From: Dictyostelium discoideum
Lineage: Eukaryota
NCBI GenBank assembly: GCA_000004695.1
Contig: CM000152.2
Coordinates: forward strand, 5,696,001-5,760,000
Direction of reading: 5' to 3'
DNA length: 64,000 bases
This document shows positions 2,401-55,467 of this stretch, one piece after another. The stretch's first letter is position 1; each line of letters opens with the position of its first letter. A model generated the notes under the pieces. The model worked only from the letters and a program-made list of their open reading frames with translations. It had not been told where the DNA came from and searched no databases. Position numbers and translations under genes: made by a program.

Positions 2401-2640
2401 TTTTTATTTATATATGTATATATTTATTTTTTTTTTTTTTTTATTTTTTTTTATTATGCTTTTTTTTTTTAATATTGGTTTTTTACTATTAATTTATTAT
2501 TTTTTTTATTAATAGCAATTAATAAAATTTTTTTTTTTCTTTATTTTCTTTTTTTTTTTTTTTGTTCAATAAAAAAAATTAATTAATTAATTAATTAATT
2601 AAACTTTTATTATTTAAAGGTGGTTGTTGGAATGAAAAAA

Positions 2641-3821: not shown

Positions 3822-6800
3822 TTAAACGGTTGCTTCAATTGGTTTCTCAGACTTTAAATTTGGCGAGAATTTTAAAACTGAATAAGGAATATTTGAGGTT
3901 AAACTTGGTGCAATACTATTAATTAAACTATTACCATTATTATTGATATTATTATTACTATTATTATTGATATTATTATTTAGACCATTATTATTATTAT
4001 TATTATTATTGATATTATTGATATTATTCATATTATTATTAGGATTATTATTATTAGGATTATTATTATTATTATTATTAATAATTTGTTTTCTTGATTT
4101 ATCTTTAAAGAATAAAACGATAATTAAAATGACAACAGCACAAATTGCAATATAACCAGTGATAGCTAATTGTGAAGAATCGGTTTCATTTGGATAACGA
4201 TCACTACCACGAGTATTTGGTACGGTTAGAGGTGGAATAACTTTATCACGTTGTTCCCATGTGATATTTAAGTATTTCTCTAAATTGGGCCATTGTGGAT
4301 CAGGGAATTGATTTGGATAGATTTGATTACCACAAGTTTGAGCCAACATGACCGATTCAGGTTTACTAACGATCTTGGAAAACTTTTTCATCTCTTTAAT
4401 TGAACCACTATCGGTTGTTCTACTTGGTAGTTCCAATTGTTTTAATGATTTTGAAATTGGTAATAACGGTCTATGTAATGTGCCAATGGTTGGGAAATAA
4501 TTGGTAATTGAAGGACTACCCTCTTTCAATACTGATAAAATATCTTCAATTAACCAAAAACAATCTAACCTATTCTTATCCTTATTTGGTGATTCATCTA
4601 AACAATTTGAATCACCAAATACAACAATATTACCACTTGAATAAATTGAATTATCTTCTTTTTTTTCTTTATTCTTTTTATTATTATTATCACTATTACT
4701 ATTATTATTATTACTATTGCTATTATTACTATCACTATTACTGTTGGTACTACTACTACTACTAGTACTACTACTAGTATTATCAACAATACTATTATCA
4801 GAACTATCTTGAGTTGATTCATCATCATTATTATTAATACTTGATTCAATATTATTATTATTTTTTAAAATTCTTTTTGAAATTATAGTTGAATTTGAAT
4901 CATTAGTTGAATCAGAACTATCAGAACTATGTTCATTTTCTAAAGTTGTTGGTTGAAAGAAACCTAATACAGGTACTTTTGATTGTGAAGTTCTACCTTT
5001 AGTGATGAGACGAGTTTGATCTACTAATGAAGCTTCTAAAATTTTACCACCAGCAGGGAAACCAATGATAGAGGTACCTGATGAAAATGTTGAAACTTTA
5101 TTACCTACAGAGAATTCACCATTGTAAATACTATCACCAAAATAAATTCCAAACACTGATAGGAAATCATTGAGAGCTGGTACATTTGAACCACCAGTAG
5201 CGGGTGACCATAATTGTTGAGTATTATCATCATGAAATTCAATTAATTTCATCACCTCGGTATTATACCAATCTGCGAAAACTATTAAATTCAAACCATG
5301 ATTTCTAACATCCTCTTCAATCTTTTTAATTTCTGATGGTAAAAACTCTTCCTCTGGGTCAATGATCATCAATGTACCATAGTTTGATGGATTGAAACAA
5401 GTCAATGGTGAGCCAATCACCTCTACAAAGTAACCCAATTGTGTTAACTTTCCATAAAGTTTTCTAAAATTGGTATGAATATGATCACCATTCCAATCGA
5501 ATGGTTCATTCTTTGTTTCCAATGAATCACGTGGGAAAAATCCTAATGGATAACGTAGATTATGAAATTGATCCCAAAGTATACGACGTTCTCTTGGTGG
5601 TTTTGGTATAATTTGAACACGTACAGGTAATTGTATTGTATAATAATTTCTAGATAATGTTGATTTAATATTATTATTGTTGATATTATTATTATTATTA
5701 TTATCAATTGCAATTATAACTTCAACAGAACCTTCAGCAACACCATTAAATGATTGTGATTCTTCAGGTACAGTAAAGAAAATACCTAAATGACCAGTCC
5801 ATGGCCAAATGGTTGATTGATAAGAAAAGTCAACTTTTAAATGATGACCATTTCTAGAGGCATTCCAATAGGTGTTTACAATTTCACCACTTACACTAAT
5901 ACCATTTAGAATGGTAGCATTCACAATGATTGGCATTGAGGTATGATAAAGTTTTTGAGTACAATAAGGCCAGAGGTATGGACATGTATCTTTATTAGTT
6001 GGTAAGAAATCCAATTGTGATGGTGATATGGTTATCTTGGGTCTGTAATGATCCAATAGGCTCTTTGCACCCAATACGTTCAATTTGCCATTACCCTGTT
6101 CGAAAATACCTGCATTTTTAATTTTTTCAGCACTTTCAATGAGAACTTGCTTCATTGAGGAGGGGTTGATAATGCTTTTATCCTTCACAGTTGAGATTAG
6201 CAATGCAATGGCACCACTCACCACTGGTGAAGAGACTGAAGTGCCCGATAATGCTTTACAATTATCATCATGACCATTCAATGGCGAGCCGTAAACACCC
6301 GATCCATAGGCCACGATGTCTGGTTTAACCCTACCATATCCATGTGGTAGTTCCCATGTGGTCATACCTCTGCTAGAGAATGATGCCAATTGGTCGTTGT
6401 AATCTATACCACCCACACCAATCACATCGGATTGGTCGGCTGGGTTATTTAAAGTACCATACAACGGACCGTCATTGCCAATGGCCGAAACCACAATGAT
6501 CTTATTTGCAGACACTTCCCACACCTTTTCAACAAATGGTTTATCCATGAAATCAGGTCCACCAATTGAAAGATTCAATACGTCAACTTTGGTTAGAATC
6601 ACATGATTGAAGGCATCAATGAACCAACTTGTGAATGAAACCTTCTCAGAATTGAAAACCCTATAGATATAAATCTCTGCATCTGGTGCAAAACCCATAC
6701 ATTTCTCTGAGGAACTTGCAATTATACCCGTAACAAATGTACCATGACCAATGGTATCAGTATTACTCTTTTTCTTATTTTCAACTTTTTCACGTGCCCA

Positions 6801-10516: not shown

Positions 10517-10587
10517 TGCGTATGCCGGGAATCGAACCCGGTTCAACTGCTTGGAAGGCAGCTATCATACCACTAGACCACATACGC
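10517..10587 (-). tRNA. tRNA-Gly (anticodon UCC), copy 1
   Basis: Reverse complement is GCGTATGTGGTCTAGTGGTATGATAGCTGCCTTCCAAGCAGTTGAACCGGGTTCGATTCCCGGCATACGCA: 7-bp acceptor stem, D arm, anticodon stem GCTGC/GCAGT with loop CTTCCAA (T33, anticodon TCC, A37), T arm GGGTTCGATTCCC. Very close to the metazoan tRNA-Gly-TCC sequence as I recall it (from memory; not re-verified). Followed by an oligo(T) terminator on the coding strand. Confidence 0.9.
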
Positions 10588-10953: not shown

Positions 10954-11024
10954 TGCGTATGCCGGGAATCGAACCCGGTTCAACTGCTTGGAAGGCAGCT
11001 ATCATACCACTAGACCACATACGC
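10954..11024 (-). tRNA. tRNA-Gly (anticodon UCC), copy 2 (identical mature sequence to copy 1)
   Basis: Same 71-nt sequence as 10517..10587. Flanks are also duplicated (10479-10612 vs 10913-11046), i.e. a ~435-bp tandem duplication of the tRNA unit. Confidence 0.9.
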
Positions 11025-25346: not shown

Positions 25347-27844
25347 ATGAAATTTAATAAATTATATTTATATAAACTTGAAGGTCAAGATAAGAAATCA
25401 TCAGTATATAGTTTAATAACACATCCAGTTCCAAGTATAGTTTTAGCGTACTTTTTTATGGTTTTAGTTGTAGTATGTCCATTATATGATGAAAGTGAAC
25501 AATTGACCAAAGGAAATTTAATATATTTATTGGTATATTTACCATGTGTAACATTTTTTTGTTTTGCAGTATTCTTCCCATTGACATTTACATTTTTAAA
25601 TTTACCTAGAATTCCATTCAATGTGAAATCAACATTTCTTTACCTAACGATTTGGGTATTCTTTTTATCATTTTGTCATTTAGTTTTCATGTTAATTGGT
25701 ATATTTCCAATACCATTCGAATGGATAATCATTTCATTTGGTGTTGGTGTACCATTGGTTTATTTATTAGTTTGGTTAAGTATTTCAAAACATGTTAAAT
25801 CTGGAAAAGATACAAATCATTCAACATTAGTATCAGAAGTTTTAAATGAAAATTCAACATCACAATATGGTAATTATAGTAGTAATTCATATCGTCATAA
25901 TCTTTATCAATATGAAAAAAATGGTGCAGATATTGAATCACCACAGTTATCAACAACATCAGCAACAACAACAACTTCAAATTTAACTCCACCATCAATG
26001 ATGTTTTATAAAAAAGATAGTAGTAATAATAATAATATTATTAATACAAATACTACTACTACTACTTCTACTACTATTAATAATAGTAATAGTAATATTA
26101 ATACACCAATACAAAAAACTGAATTCATTAATGAAACTTCACAAGTTGGTATACCATTAAAAGAAATTTATTCATCAAGTCAAATTAATTCAAATCCACT
26201 TTTAATTGGTTTAAGTTTAAATGAGTCATCTCAACAACAACATCAACAACCTCAACAACAACAACAACAACAACAATTAAAACTTTCAAAAACATTATCA
26301 GAATCACCATCAAAATCAAATCCAAAATCATTATCAAATTCATTCATTCAAAATTTATGTGTAAATGATGGTGCAAATGAAAATATTGAAGAAATAATTA
26401 ATATTGATAAACATGTAAATAATAATATTAATAAAAATAATAAGTGTAATAATAATAATAATAATATATCAAGTAATAATACAAGTAGCGTAAATTTAAA
26501 TAATTTAAATACAATTGGTGATGATATTGAAGAAAATGATGGTGGTAAAAGTATTGGTAGTAGTGTTTCAGGTTCACCAAGATCATCTATTGATATTCCA
26601 TTCGATTTATCAATTGAACCTGGTGGTATAACTTCACCAAAATTAAATAGTTGTAATAATAGTAATAATAATAATAGTAATGGAAGAATCATTGAAATTC
26701 CAAAATTAAATAATAATGTAGAATTTGAAAATAAAAAAGAATCAACAAATACAACATCATTAGATGATAATTTCATTTCAGCAACAACCCCAAGAAATTA
26801 TAATTCATCAACAAATAAAAGTTTCTTTTCAAAAGATGGTTTCTTTTTTAAATGGTGGATTGTATCATCAACGATTATTTTAGGTCCATTTGGTTATGCA
26901 ATTTTTCATATTTTCCTTTTTGCTTTCTATAGTGTAACAAATAATATTTTCCAAGTTATTCTTATCGTATCTTTTCAAATCATTGTATTTATATATAAAT
27001 TAATCTTTAGATTATCATTTCATAGAATGAGAAGAAATTTACCAAATATCCCATTAAGGTATGTAAATTTAAAATAATAATAATAATAAATAATAAAAAT
27101 AATAATAATAATAATTAATCAATTAACCACCTCTCCCCTCTCCCTTCCCCCTCATTTTTATTTTTATTTTAAATATTTAGAGTATTTCAAGATGGTAGAG
27201 TTTTATTTTTATTTTGGTTAGAATTAAGTTCACATTGTTTCTTTTCTATGGTATTTCCACATGTCGGAGCATGGTATATGATTATTATTTATTTGGCGTT
27301 GGAAGCTGTGACATTGACATTACAAATATTTGTTGATACTATTGCATTTAGAAATTGGTGTATTAGAACATTTGAAAAGTTGTATGAACATTTTTATTTG
27401 ATAAAATATGAAGGTGTTTTAATGTACAATATTTTAGGTCAAAATGGTGATTTGGATAGAACAGTATCATTGGAGATCTTTTTCTTTAATACTGTTGCAA
27501 GAGCGTTATCGGGTTTCGCATATATTGTATTCTCATTAACAATTTATTATGGACCAAATCAAGAATACTACCCAACTATTAAATCATTATCAGAATTTAA
27601 TTATTTTCTAACATTATTATATGCTTTTGCTTCATTAACAACCGCTTTAATTCATATGTACATTTTTAAAAGAATACTTAAACATGTTTATAAAATTAAT
27701 TTAATTAAAAGAGGTATTCAAGTTTGGGGAAGAAAACCTGATGTTGCTTTCTTTTTCATTACAAATTGTTTCATATTGCCACTTGTTGTATTATTACAAC
27801 AAAATAATGCTGTTAGTTTTTTAATTTCAAATTTAAATAAATAA
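25347..27844 (+). CDS. Polytopic membrane protein of unknown function, join(25347..27058,27181..27844), ~791 aa
   Basis: N-terminal cluster of ~4 TM helices, a long Asn/Ser/Thr-rich low-complexity middle, and a C-terminal cluster of ~6 TM helices. Exon 1 ends AAG|GTATGT and exon 2 starts after ATATTTAG, in frame (RVFQDGRVLFLFWLELSSHCFFSMVFPHVGAWYM...). Confidence 0.7.
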
Positions 27845-44312: not shown

Positions 44313-44729
44313 AAATAATAATTGTTAGTAAATTTACTTTTTATTTTTATTTTTTTAAAAAATTAAATTAAATAAATAATACATACTGTCAGCAACTTTT
44401 GTAACTAAACGTTCTACTCTCATTTGGGATTCATAAACATAGTTATAATTTGAACATTCATTTCTCATATAATTACATAACATACGAGCATCAGCAGTTA
44501 AACCTGAAATTGCAATACCAACATGATCATCAACTACAAAAATCTTCTTTTGATATGAACCTAATTCGGATGATGATCTCTTTAATGATACTAAAACTGC
44601 AAATTGTTTGGATTTTAATGCAACTGCTGCACCACCTTGTTTTACTGCTTCCATTGCATACTCTATTTGATGAATTCTACCACTTGGTGAAAAGGTAGTA
44701 ATATCACTATCATATTGATTACGATACAT
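43737..44729 (-). CDS. psmA1: Proteasome subunit alpha type-1 (20S core), complement(join(43737..43784,43910..44265,44387..44729)), 248 aa
   Basis: [32 protein letters not shown]...[24 protein letters not shown]... then [24 protein letters not shown]...ALRETIP..., near-colinear with human PSMA1 (sequence recalled from memory; not re-verified). Donors GTATGT x2; acceptors AATAG and ATATAG; phases verified (exon lengths 343/356/48). Confidence 0.85.
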
Positions 44730-45355
44730 TTTATATTTAAATATTATGTGTGTAAAATTATTATTATTAAATGAAAAAAAAAAAAAAAAAAATTAAAAAT
44801 TAAAAAAAAAAAAAAAATGTGATGATCACAAAAAATTTAATTTAATGTAAAAAAAATTGAAAAAAAAAAAAATTAAAAAAAAAATAAAAAAAAATAAAAA
44901 ATAAAAAATTAAAAAAAAAATAAAAAATAAATTTAATTTAAAAGAGTGAAGTTGCAAATTTTTTATTTTAATAATTTTTTTATTTGTTAATTTTATGATT
45001 GAAATAATAAACAAAATCTGAAATTTTTTATTTTTTTTTTTTTTTTTTATATTATATTTTCTTATTCTTTTTTTTTTTTTTTCTTTTTTTATTTTTTTTT
45101 AATAATGAATTTAATTATATTATTGAATAAATAATTGAATTGACACTTTAAAATTTAGAATATGATTTAAAAAAAAAAAAAAAAATATTTTGGACAAAAC
45201 ATTAATTATTTAAAGATATTTTTTTTTGTTTTTTTTTATTTTATTTTATTTTATTTTTTTTTTATTTTTTTGAAAATTTTTAGATTTTTTTGTTTTTTTT
45301 TATAATTTTTTTTTTTTTTTTTTTTTTTTTTTCATTCACTATCATTTATATCAAA

Positions 45356-46554
45356 ATGTCAATAAGTATAAAAGATAAGAAAGAAGAATTGCTCTGTAGA
45401 TTAACAGATTTTACTAAATTAAAAGGGTGAGGATGTAAAGTACCACAAGCAGAGTTGCTCTCTCTACTTGATGGTATAGGTGAAGGTATTGGTTATGATT
45501 GTAGTATTTCACAAACAAAATTCCCTGATATTGTTATGATTCAAACAACAGATGTAAGTTTAAAATTATTTAAAAATAAAAATAAATTAATAAAATTATA
45601 TATATATATATACTAATATATATATATATATTCTTTATAATTTTTTTAAAAAAAAAGTTCTTTTTCCCGTTAGTTGATGATCCATATTTCCAAGGTAAAA
45701 TTGCATGTGCCAATGTTTTATCAGATCTTTATTCATTTGGTATTGAAGATTGTGATAATATGTTAATGTTATTAGCATGTTCAACTGATATGACAGCAGA
45801 ACAAAGACAATGGTCATCGAAATTGATGATACAAGGATTCAATGATCAGGCAATTTGCGCAGGTAGTAAAGTTAGTGGTGGTCAAACCGTAAAGAATCCA
45901 TGGCCGATAGTTGGTGGTGTTGCAACTTCCATTTTAAAGACCAACGAATTTATAAAGCCAGTGAATGCTGTCCCCGGTGACGTATTAGTATTAACCAAGC
46001 CTCTAGGCACACAAGTTTGTGTAAACTTTCATCAATGGTTATCTAAACCAGAACGTTGGGAAAAGATCAACACAATTACAAATGCAGAAGAATGTGAACA
46101 AGTATTCAACTATGCAACACTGTCAATGGCAAGATTGAATAGGGTAGGCGCAAGACTAATGAAAAAGTATAATGCTCATGCCGCCACCGATGTCACTGGT
46201 TTCGGTATATTGGGTCATTCAACTAATTTGGCTCAAAATCAACTCTTACCAATTCGTTTTGAAATTCATACATTACCAATCATTAAACATATGAAAAAGT
46301 TGGAAGATCATTTAAATCATCCATTCAAATTATTAAAAGGTACTTCAGCTGAAACTTCTGGTGGTTTATTAATTTCAATGTCTCGCGAAAATGCTGAAGC
46401 TTTTTGTAAAGAAATCTATGAAATTGAAAAACAACCAGCTTGGATCATTGGTGATGTAATCGATCAATCCTCAAATTATGATAGATCTAAAAATACTTCA
46501 ATCATTTTAGAAAATCCAAAAATTATTGAAGTTGAACCAAATACAAATTTTTGA
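45356..46554 (+). CDS. selD: Selenophosphate synthetase (selenide, water dikinase; SPS2/SelD-type) with in-frame UGA at 45428..45430 (codon 25, predicted selenocysteine); join(45356..45553,45658..46554), ~364 aa
   Basis: Exon 1 reads MSISIKDKKEELLCRLTDFTKLKG-TGA-GCKVPQAELLSLLDGIGEG... The TGA sits exactly at the Sec/Cys position of the conserved xGCKVP active-site motif. Exon 1 ends GAT|GTAAGT; exon 2 after AAAAAG encodes FFFPLVDDPYFQGKIACANVLSDLY... and the AIR-synthase-like C-terminal domain. Dictyostelium is known to encode a selenoprotein SPS2. Confidence 0.85.
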
Positions 46555-46832
46555 TTTAAACAAAAGTTTGTAACATTTTGACAATTACCAAAAAAAAAAT
46601 AAAAATTAATATTTAATTTTTATTTTTATCATTCAACAATTATCAACAACAACAGTCATAAAAAAAAAAAAAAAAAAAAAAAGAAACACCTCCTTCACTA
46701 TCAACTTTATACATTTAGATAAATTTATTTTTATTATTTGAAGAGCAATCAAATATTAAAAAAATTATTAAAAAAAGAAAATTTATCAAACAAAAATAAT
46801 AATAATAATAATAATTTTTAATAACAAATATT

Positions 46833-46886
46833 GTAATGATTTGAAATTGATAAATCCATATTATTGGACTTAATTTCATTGAAAAA
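46833..46886 (+). other. Candidate form-2 SECIS element in the selD 3'UTR (~280 nt after the stop)
   Basis: aATGAtt TGAAATT gat AAA TCCA tattat TGGA ctt AATTTCA t TGAa: ATGA core, 7-bp helix II (TGAAATT/AATTTCA), unpaired AAA, mini-helix III (TCCA/TGGA), 3' GA. Confidence 0.45.
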
Positions 46887-47011
46887 AAAAAGATATAATA
46901 ATTATAGAAATAAATAAAATCTATATATTATTTTTTTAATATTTATTATTAAAAACAAATTTAAACTTTATTTTATTATTATTTCTTTTTTTTTTTTTTT
47001 TTTTTTTTTTT

Positions 47012-48627
47012 TTATTTTCTTGATTCAAGTAATACTTTAAATTTATTTGGTTTTAAAGTTAAACCAAATTCTTCATAATCAGAAACTGGTGTACCAATAT
47101 TTTTTAAATTAAAATTTAATAAAATATTTGAAAATGATAAATATTGTTCATCACCTGCTAATTGTAAACCAACACATTTTCTATCACCAACACCAAATGG
47201 CATGTATGCATCATTATTTTTATTTAAAAATCTTGATGGATCGAATTGTGAAGGATTTTCAAAGTATTTTTCATTGAATCCTAAACCTCTATAATTAACA
47301 AGAATTTGTGAATCTTTTGGAATGAAATACTTACCATTACCAATTACGATATCATTTGATGAACGATGTGGTAATCCAAATGGTCCAACTGGATTTAAAC
47401 GTAATATCTCTTTAATAATTGCATTTAAATATGGTGTTTTTGGACGATCTGATAATAATACTCTATCTCTATCGCCTACAGCATCTTTAATTTCATTATA
47501 AGCTTTTAATTGAATTTCTGGATGTTCTTGCATTCTTAATACAAACCAAATTATACTTGCTGCTGTTGTATCCTAAATAAAAATTATAAAAAAATAATTA
47601 AAATTTGAAAGTTTAAAGAAAAATTAAAAAAAAAATAAATTATCATGATGTACAAACATTTCCAGCTAAAAACATATCAAGTGAAGTTTGTAAAATTGTT
47701 GGAATTAAATTTTTATCATTTGAAAATTCATTAATTAATAAATCCATTAAATCACGTGGATTATCATGATCAATTGTATTTATATGTTCTAAATATCTTT
47801 TATAAATGAATTTTTTAACTGTTGAAAATGGTCCATTAAATTGTTTATCTGAGAATTTTAACCATTGATAATAGAATGGTTGAGCGATTGATATAAAGTC
47901 ACCTAATTTACCAGACCCTAATGATTTGAAAATTTGGTCCATTGGTTGAACCAATTCTGCTATCTTGCCTTTGGTAATATCCTCATCATATGAAATATCC
48001 TCATTAAAAATATATTTAAACATTATTGATAATGTAAAACGTTGTGCATATAAATGAATTTCAAATGGGTTACCAGTGACTTGATACTGTTTCATTGATT
48101 TAATTAATTCATAAACTTGGCTATCCAACATATCATAAATCTTTTTAATTGATGTTCTTTTCATTGCATTTTGTACTAATTCTCTAGTTCTTTCCCAACG
48201 TTCATTTGATAATGATAAACCGTGATCACCACCAGCACCAAATTTAAATGTTGGTAATAATGGACGATATTTAAAATTTTCATGATTATCAACAAACATT
48301 TCCCTAATTAAAATTGGATCTGAAACTACAACTGTATAAACATCACCAAAATGTAATCTAAAAATTTCACCATAAACATTATGCATTTTTGTTAATGTAT
48401 AATGTGGTTCTTTTCCTAATTGATGTAAATTTCCAAGTAATGGAATTGGAAATGGTCCTGATAATTCATTTTTATGAATTTTCTTATATTTTTTAATCTA
48501 TTTTTTTTTTTTTTTTTTTTTTTAATTAGTATATTTTTTTTTTTTTAAAAAAAAATAAATGTAAAATACATACGCCGGAGCTAACAATACAAAATATAAA
48601 TAAATATAAAAATATATTAAATAACAT
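47012..48627 (-). CDS. Cytochrome P450 monooxygenase, complement(join(47012..47572,47658..48497,48574..48627)), ~484 aa
   Basis: Exon 1 is an N-terminal membrane anchor [18 protein letters not shown] with GTATGT donor. Exon 2 has the Pro-rich hinge ...[23 protein letters not shown]... and ends FLAGN|GTTTGT. Exon 3 continues DTTAASIIW (I-helix AGxDTT), ETLR-like region and heme ligand [10 protein letters not shown]. All junctions phase 0. Confidence 0.8.
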
Positions 48628-55385: not shown

Positions 55386-55467
55386 GACATCGTAGCGAAG
55401 TGGTCTAACGCGTTTGACTTGAAATCAAATCTCCTAGGAGGCGCAGGTTCGAACCCTGCCGATGTCG
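55386..55467 (+). tRNA. tRNA-Ser (anticodon UGA), class II with long variable arm
   Basis: GACATCG TA GCGAAGTGGTCTAACGCG TTTGA CTTGAAA TCAAA TCTCCTAGGAGGCG CAGG TTCGAAC CCTG CCGATGTCG: acceptor stem GACATCG/CGATGTC, anticodon stem TTTGA/TCAAA, loop CTTGAAA (anticodon TGA), 14-nt variable arm, canonical T arm. Confidence 0.85.

Follow-up and report, generated by a model that had tools for sequence, protein, structure and literature searches.

Within a 64,000-nucleotide stretch of Dictyostelium discoideum DNA (hereafter, the window), we assign a region on the forward strand, with a probability of about 95%, to the selenocysteine (Sec)-encoding selD/SPS2 gene of this organism together with its SECIS element. 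The gene (45356..46554) carries an in-frame UGA as codon 25 (45428..45430, + strand, 72 nt 3' of the ATG), which would specify Sec, and the SECIS lies downstream at 46832..46883. The selD gene, its Sec codon and its SECIS were already published in 2007 (PMC2375036); the case is therefore known, a textbook example and no discovery, though real and correctly interpreted. That study (Lobanov et al. 2007, Genome Biol 8:R198) described five D. discoideum selenoproteins, namely SPS2, SelK, Sep15, MSP and a deiodinase homologue, and its supplement gives GenBank U68248.1 as the D. discoideum SPS, the SECIS sequence not being provided as text. We regard U68248.1 as the same gene, nothing of substance being different, and this identity rests on the match of organism and on the features described. 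Biologically nothing new is added: that SPS2 is a selenoprotein and marks Sec use in Amoebozoa is established (PMC2375036, PMC4561486), and Mariotti et al. (2015, PMC4561486) take it as the marker of Sec use for eukaryotes in general, Amoebozoa included. The value of the present analysis is mainly that of a positive control, in which a recoded UGA, a splice junction and a SECIS were correctly recovered by the first-pass annotation from raw sequence alone, and its practical point is that current automated gene models still excise the Sec codon.

Gene structure and protein family

Translation delineated a first exon of the selD/SPS2 gene at 45356..45553 (+ strand), comprising 66 codons from the ATG at 45356..45358 and reading MSISIKDKKEELLCRLTDFTKLKG, then the TGA of codon 25, then GCKVPQAELL...IQTTD. 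An intron of 104 nt follows at 45554..45657 (+ strand; GTAAGT...AG, phase 0), and the second exon at 45658..46554 (+ strand) contributes 298 codons plus the stop, with a translation that opens FFFPLVDDPYFQGKIACANVLSDLY... and is stop-free until the TGA at 46552..46554. The spliced coding sequence (CDS) amounts to 1095 nt and yields a product of 364 residues, codon 25 being its sole internal stop. GC content is 5% in the intron versus 34% in the CDS, with the window overall at about 15-30%. Among the dictyostelids, the six loci whose donor was examined, D. discoideum included, have a GT after the codons for TTD at an unchanged position, and the remaining two dictyostelid loci show Val (GTN) directly past TTD, consistent with the same donor; a homologue from a metagenomic eukaryote (L006) is without the intron.

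On the 3' side, 457 nt of intergenic DNA with a GC content of 12% separate the selD stop from a convergent P450 gene. This interval holds an AATAAA at 46598, 5' of the SECIS, and another at 46909, just 3' of it. Because the SECIS must sit within the mRNA, we infer that the 3'UTR extends to this element and that the distal AATAAA is used, so that the segment between the stop codon and the SECIS (46555..46831, + strand) would be 3'UTR. The coordinates and sequence strings of the first-pass annotation, covering exons, intron, TGA and the parts of the hairpin, all proved exact when the sequence was read again.

For homology searches, the 364-residue product was submitted with a placeholder in place of the TGA residue. 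Against PDB, phmmer returned full-length alignments to solved SPS structures, with E values of 2.4e-107 for human SPS1 (aligned residues 14-361) and 8.1e-93 for Leishmania SPS2, and bacterial SelD structures were matched at 5.5e-22 and 3.6e-25. The NCBIfam model TIGR00476 (selD) scored 216.5 bits against a cut-off of 125, and the Pfam domains AIRS (PF00586, 36.4 bits) and AIRS_C (PF02769, 57.3 bits) were both above their gathering thresholds; scores for the SelD equivalog models NF010705 and NF002098 were under their bacterial/archaeal cut-offs. The selD identity claimed in the first-pass annotation is borne out by TIGR00476, by AIRS/AIRS_C and by human SPS1, and the gene product belongs to the selenophosphate synthetases, with ATP-dependent selenophosphate synthesis as its presumed activity. 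A D. discoideum protein model (P0121) is 100% identical to the selD product over the 336 residues of the model, all exon 2 residues included, which identifies the window as D. discoideum.

The glycine-rich N-terminal loop KG-[TGA]-GCKVPQ is present, the Sec/Cys position being followed by G-C-K. Catalytically active selenophosphate synthetases have Sec or Cys at this position, with Sec in human SPS2 and Cys17 in E. coli SelD. When the conceptual protein was aligned, the TGA faced Thr29 of human SPS1 (KGTGCKVPQ) and the Cys of Leishmania SPS2 (KGCSCKLPQ), in agreement with its earlier placement at the conserved Sec/Cys site. The fold family and the KG-x-GCKVPQ loop are held in common with human SEPHS2 and SEPHS1 (SPS1, with Thr at x; PDB 3fd5, 9hjt), and human SEPHS2 has a UGA at x, as does the Dictyostelium gene, and a SECIS in its 3'UTR, as the Dictyostelium gene probably has too; animal enzymes carry a long N-terminal extension that is missing from the Dictyostelium protein. 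Bacterial SelD (E. coli Cys17 form, PDB 3u0o; Aquifex, 2yye/2zod) belongs to the same enzyme family, but bacterial Sec-SelD genes have a SelB-read stem-loop directly past the UGA and not a kink-turn SECIS in a 3'UTR (PMC4561486).

Conservation of the in-frame UGA and translation through it

Loci were fetched from D. dimigraforme, D. purpureum, Heterostelium album, Acytostelium subglobosum, Cavenderia fasciculata, D. firmibasis and D. citrinum, and the metagenomic eukaryote (L006) served as the ninth locus in the UGA comparison. The equivalent of codon 25 was TGA in all eight loci other than that of D. discoideum (7 dictyostelids and 1 metagenomic eukaryote), and the TGA is therefore not a strain-specific mutation, a possibility that had been raised from the D. 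discoideum sequence and is now removed. The surrounding peptide is conserved as well, with LCRLTD[FY]T[KR]LKG before the TGA and GCK[VI]PQ after it, and the sequence AAAGGGTGAGG around the UGA shows no variation among dictyostelids. A protein model of the metagenomic homologue (P0029) has Trp at the Sec position, which corresponds to TGA read under another code.

Pairwise differences, summed by codon position, came to 43/32/97 over the 16 codons 5' of the TGA and to 89/65/240 over the 41 codons 3' of it, with the same third-position excess on the two sides. Given the excess on the 5' side, the codons ahead of the TGA are constrained as coding sequence in one frame with the rest, and ribosomes must therefore proceed across the TGA.

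These comparisons weigh against the view that the TGA is a genuine stop and that the locus is either a pseudogene or a gene whose translation begins only further 3', so that its enzyme lacks the N-terminal loop. Such a stop would be in keeping with the automated public models of selD, which begin at Met61 or omit codons 15-42 by way of an invented intron, much as the first-pass annotation had anticipated in warning that naive gene callers would either cut the gene short or overlook it. "Hypothetical protein" models free of the Sec codon are found in several assemblies of the D. discoideum group and in D. purpureum, H. album, A. subglobosum and C. fasciculata, and the protein collection contained no exact match to the full-length selD product with X at position 25. 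However, the TGA and both flanking peptides have been kept among dictyostelids despite many synonymous differences, and the rest of the selD ORF is intact. The first Met past the TGA is residue 61, and a start there loses the whole KG-x-GCKVPQ catalytic loop. A genuine stop would also leave a conserved SECIS without reason. We therefore consider termination at codon 25 highly improbable and retain Sec as the very probable meaning of this codon.

The SECIS element

The SECIS at 46832..46883 (+ strand) reads UGUA-AUGA-UU-UGAAAUUGA-U-AAA-UCCA-UAUUAU-UGGA-C-UUAAUUUCA-UU-GA-A, and its assignment draws on the fold, a strict pattern, orthologues, covariation and the published description. Its ATGA core (46836..46839) is located 282 nt 3' of the selD stop, on the same strand and 5' of the convergent P450 gene, with TGTA directly 5' of the core (46832..46835). 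Next to the core, U46840 stands opposite U46880 and U46841 opposite U46879, followed by the helix formed by TGAAATT (46842..46848) and AATTTCA (46872..46878), an unpaired AAA in the 5' bulge (46852..46854), and a mini-stem of TCCA (46855..46858) and TGGA (46865..46868) closing a loop of 6 nt; the 3' TGAA occupies 46880..46883, with its GA at 46881..46882. G46838.A46882 and A46839.G46881 are positioned for the sheared tandem of a kink-turn, and the spacing from core to AAA (A46839 to A46852) is 12 nt, in line with the roughly 9-12 positions of a type II SECIS, in which a mini-stem takes the place of an open apical loop. The elements reported by the first-pass annotation (ATGA, a 7-bp helix, AAA, a mini-helix and a 3' TGAA, about 280 nt after the stop) are all present, and RNAfold lengthens helix II to 9 bp (46842..46850 with 46870..46878) through G-U and A-U pairs. 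The 9-bp helix II with the AAA bulge and the 4-bp mini-stem constituted both the MFE and the centroid structure, at -9.3 kcal/mol; helix I below the core is weak and lies in an AT/A-rich context. According to PMC2375036, all D. discoideum SECIS elements belong to type II and show UGUA ahead of the core, a U-U mismatch behind it and an unpaired AAA, and 46832..46883 shares every one of these published features (UGUA, U-U, AAA, type II). UGUA and U-U are the lineage-specific differences between the Dictyostelium SECIS and that of humans.

We also weighed whether 46832..46883 might be a hairpin that arose by chance in intergenic DNA rich in AT, with any true SECIS located elsewhere. SECIS-like patterns are frequent when loosely defined: a home-made ATGA..AA..GA hairpin pattern gave 23 matches on the two strands of the window, and on account of these it was dropped as evidence, a strict pattern and comparison between species being used instead. 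The single-sequence stability of the hairpin against shuffles was likewise marginal (z = -1.46), as expected for an element of 18% GC, and the Rfam eukaryotic SECIS model found no match at E <= 10 either in 2.4 kb (45000..47400) or in a 111-nt slice (46800..46910). The authors of SECISearch3 describe non-metazoan SECIS elements as the hardest for all methods, with D. purpureum SECIS among their test cases (PMC3753652). Three Rfam snoRNA matches near selD, with E values of 6.6-9.9 and scores far under gathering, were set aside as chance.

The strict pattern, which needs UGUA, U-U, a helix of 8 pairs or more, AAA and the mini-stem, matched only 46832..46883 in the window and had 0 matches in 200 dinucleotide-preserving shuffles of the window; it was written after the candidate was known and is hence partly post hoc, a weakness of which conservation and covariation are free. 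No other SECIS-like match lay in the interval from the selD stop to the neighbouring gene. All dictyostelid loci (7 other species) have an orthologous SECIS element, placed 220-390 nt 3' of the stop, with AUGA and GA invariant in a six-species alignment, the mini-stem retained in the orthologues, and UGUA retained in 7 of the 8 dictyostelid loci, C. fasciculata having TATA. The C. fasciculata element thus has UAUA instead of UGUA, and its bulge is without AA.

On the six-species alignment, RNAalifold returned a structure identical to the one named beforehand; 92% of cells pair, and sliding the 3' partners brings this to 56% or less. Compensatory double changes occur at 5 of 13 SECIS pairs (e.g., G-C to A-U and A-U to U-A); within helix II, compensatory change was seen at 5 of 10 pairs, and of 500 shuffles no more than 0-1 attained the observed covariation. 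When six dictyostelid SECIS elements were made into a covariance model, it scored 71.7 bits at 46832..46883 and detected no further SECIS anywhere in the window, where the runner-up had 17.9 bits (E = 1); applied to the metagenomic eukaryote (L006), the same model found no SECIS. Set against the strict pattern, the orthologues and the compensatory changes in helix II, an origin by chance is barely conceivable. The comparative evidence supports the identification of the hairpin as a type II SECIS that dictyostelids have kept with covarying pairs, and for which SBP2 binding and Sec insertion are predicted.

Decoding of the UGA and the adjacent hairpin

Taken as a Sec-encoding gene, the locus would operate as follows. 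The mRNA would be spliced once, and a ribosome starting at 45356 would meet the UGA at codon 25, with the kink-turn hairpin of the type II SECIS situated about 1.3 kb downstream in the 3'UTR. The SECIS would recruit a SECIS-binding protein (SBP2) and EFsec with Sec-tRNA(Sec), and the UGA would therefore be decoded as selenocysteine, translation not being ended. Sec would then lie in the glycine-rich N-terminal loop, KG-U-GCKVPQ, in the place of the catalytic Sec/Cys of other SPS/SelD enzymes.

A candidate SRE-like hairpin was located within the CDS at 45440..45477 (+ strand), starting 10 nt past the UGA, by RNAalifold on 7 species. In D. discoideum its MFE is -15.3 kcal/mol (z = -1.99), and 9 of 200 shuffles fold equally well. 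Across the alignment 90% of cells pair, compared with 37-62% in slid controls, figures that derive from only 7 sequences and are confounded by coding constraint. Three pairs show compensatory change, one of them a pair of third positions with four pair types. Mariotti et al. (2015, PMC4561486) report that every eukaryotic SPS gene containing a UGA has a stem-loop (SRE) adjoining it, and the hairpin is a candidate for this published class, with modest support from the seven coding sequences; it may aid recoding in the manner of the SRE of other SPS2 genes.

Another stem, holding the UGA itself and pairing AAGGGUGAG (45423..45431) with CUCUCUCUA (45458..45466), was considered, and 86% of its cells pair with no compensatory change; it was dropped for the downstream hairpin of RNAalifold, and its shuffle control was uninformative. 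The AAA GGG TGA GG context is unvarying in dictyostelids, even though genomes so rich in AT would seldom use GGG for Gly, and the conservation of this rare codon 5' of the UGA is unusual. About 27 nt 3' of the UGA, the Leu/Ser codons are CTC/TCY/CTN and not the AT-rich synonyms.

The hairpin at 45440..45477, with some covariation, is also what would be seen if the UGA were read through without Sec, as proposed for the hymenopteran SPS1-UGA genes, the exon-1 stem-loop being the driving element and the 3' hairpin irrelevant. SRE/HRE elements that promote SECIS-independent readthrough have been described for SPS genes, and hymenopteran SPS1-UGA with its HRE resembles the present gene in having a UGA at the same position and a nearby stem-loop (PMC4561486). 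However, the hymenopteran genes, thought to be read through without Sec, are without a SECIS and occur in hosts without selenoproteins (PMC4561486), whereas the D. discoideum gene has a SECIS conserved with compensatory changes. D. discoideum moreover possesses Sec machinery, and 75Se labelling in this organism gave a band matching the size of SPS (PMC2375036). Readthrough without Sec is hardly credible on these grounds, and insertion of Sec at codon 25 is the reading that we keep.

Within the D. discoideum clade selD also ends on TGA, which is unusual in that other dictyostelids use TAA. Because the mRNA carries a SECIS, it is conceivable that some ribosomes might insert Sec at the terminator UGA too, giving an isoform that is lengthened at its C terminus and contains a second Sec, an outcome that we rate as very unlikely. 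The terminator TGA is followed by a conserved block of 8 codons, FK(Q/K)KFVTF, and then by a second in-frame TGA; among four closely related species, this block shows three substitutions, two of them synonymous and one not.

Codon choice and a candidate hairpin around the Sec UGA

Within exon 1 of selD, a candidate hairpin resembling a Sec redefinition element (SRE) was located at 45440..45477 (+), 10 nt 3' of the Sec UGA, with a folding energy of -15.3 kcal/mol (z = -2.0) in the D. discoideum sequence, and it was kept across seven species with three covarying pairs in a region that is also coding. SRE hairpins have been described for UGA-containing SPS genes (PMC4561486), and the candidate hairpin resembles this published element. 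Across the dictyostelid loci, synonymous codon choice flanking the Sec UGA was conserved more than the amino acids demand, in two blocks on the plus strand. The first (45419..45432), AAA GGG TGA GG, showed no variation among dictyostelids, GGG being a rare codon in the AT-rich D. discoideum genome and yet invariant before the Sec UGA, while in the second (45455..45466), 3' of the UGA, Leu-Leu-Ser/Ala-Leu was encoded by TG CTC NCN CT. When a stem joining these two blocks was tested in the dictyostelid comparison, no covariation was detected.

The selD terminator and SECIS elements in other loci

The selD terminator and its trailing block lie at 46552..46581 (+), with counterparts starting at 3904, 2487 and 2672 in the orthologous dictyostelid loci L001, L007 and L008, respectively. 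The selD genes of D. discoideum, D. dimigraforme, D. firmibasis and D. citrinum end in TGA, those of more distant dictyostelids in TAA. In the same four species, FK(Q/K)KFVTF is conserved in frame after the terminator TGA, and a second TGA comes next. Judged from the sequence, this stretch could be a conserved 3'UTR block; more speculatively, the terminator TGA might be a second recoding site.

The orthologous SECIS of Cavenderia fasciculata (L005, 4784..4832) was found 390 nt after the called stop, with UAUA rather than UGUA ahead of the core and an internal bulge of (U)CAC lacking AA, thereby deviating from the AAA reported as universal in the Dictyostelium SECIS. A metagenomic eukaryote (L006, TGA at 2576..2578; ENA metagenome contig ctg126769, 47% GC) carries an intronless SPS2 whose Sec codon is TGA, rendered as Trp by the gene caller in its protein model P0029. 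The sequence TGTAATGAC (L006, 3848..) was found 259 nt 3' of this SPS2 stop, and the dictyostelid SECIS covariance model gave no match there.

Public selD models

Automated pipelines misannotated the selD 5' end in at least nine dictyostelid assemblies (models P0001, P0002, P0004, P0005, P0022 and P0121-P0127), either dropping codons 15-42 through an invented intron or starting at Met61, and the C. fasciculata model received an unrelated N-terminus. Many of the faulty models are labelled "hypothetical protein".

Neighbouring genes and other features

Upstream of selD lies a proteasome alpha-type subunit exon (44355..44729, -), and downstream a convergent cytochrome P450 gene of at least two exons (47012..48386, -). 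The order proteasome-selD-P450 is intact in D. firmibasis and D. citrinum, and D. dimigraforme retains the P450 next to selD. The top non-selD match to the SECIS model in the window (27523..27597, -; 17.9 bits, E = 1) is most likely due to chance. The 64-kb window contains no tRNA-Sec; it holds two tRNA-Gly(UCC) genes of 71 nt each, spaced 437 nt apart (10517..10587 and 10954..11024, both -), and one tRNA-Ser(UGA) (55386..55467, +).
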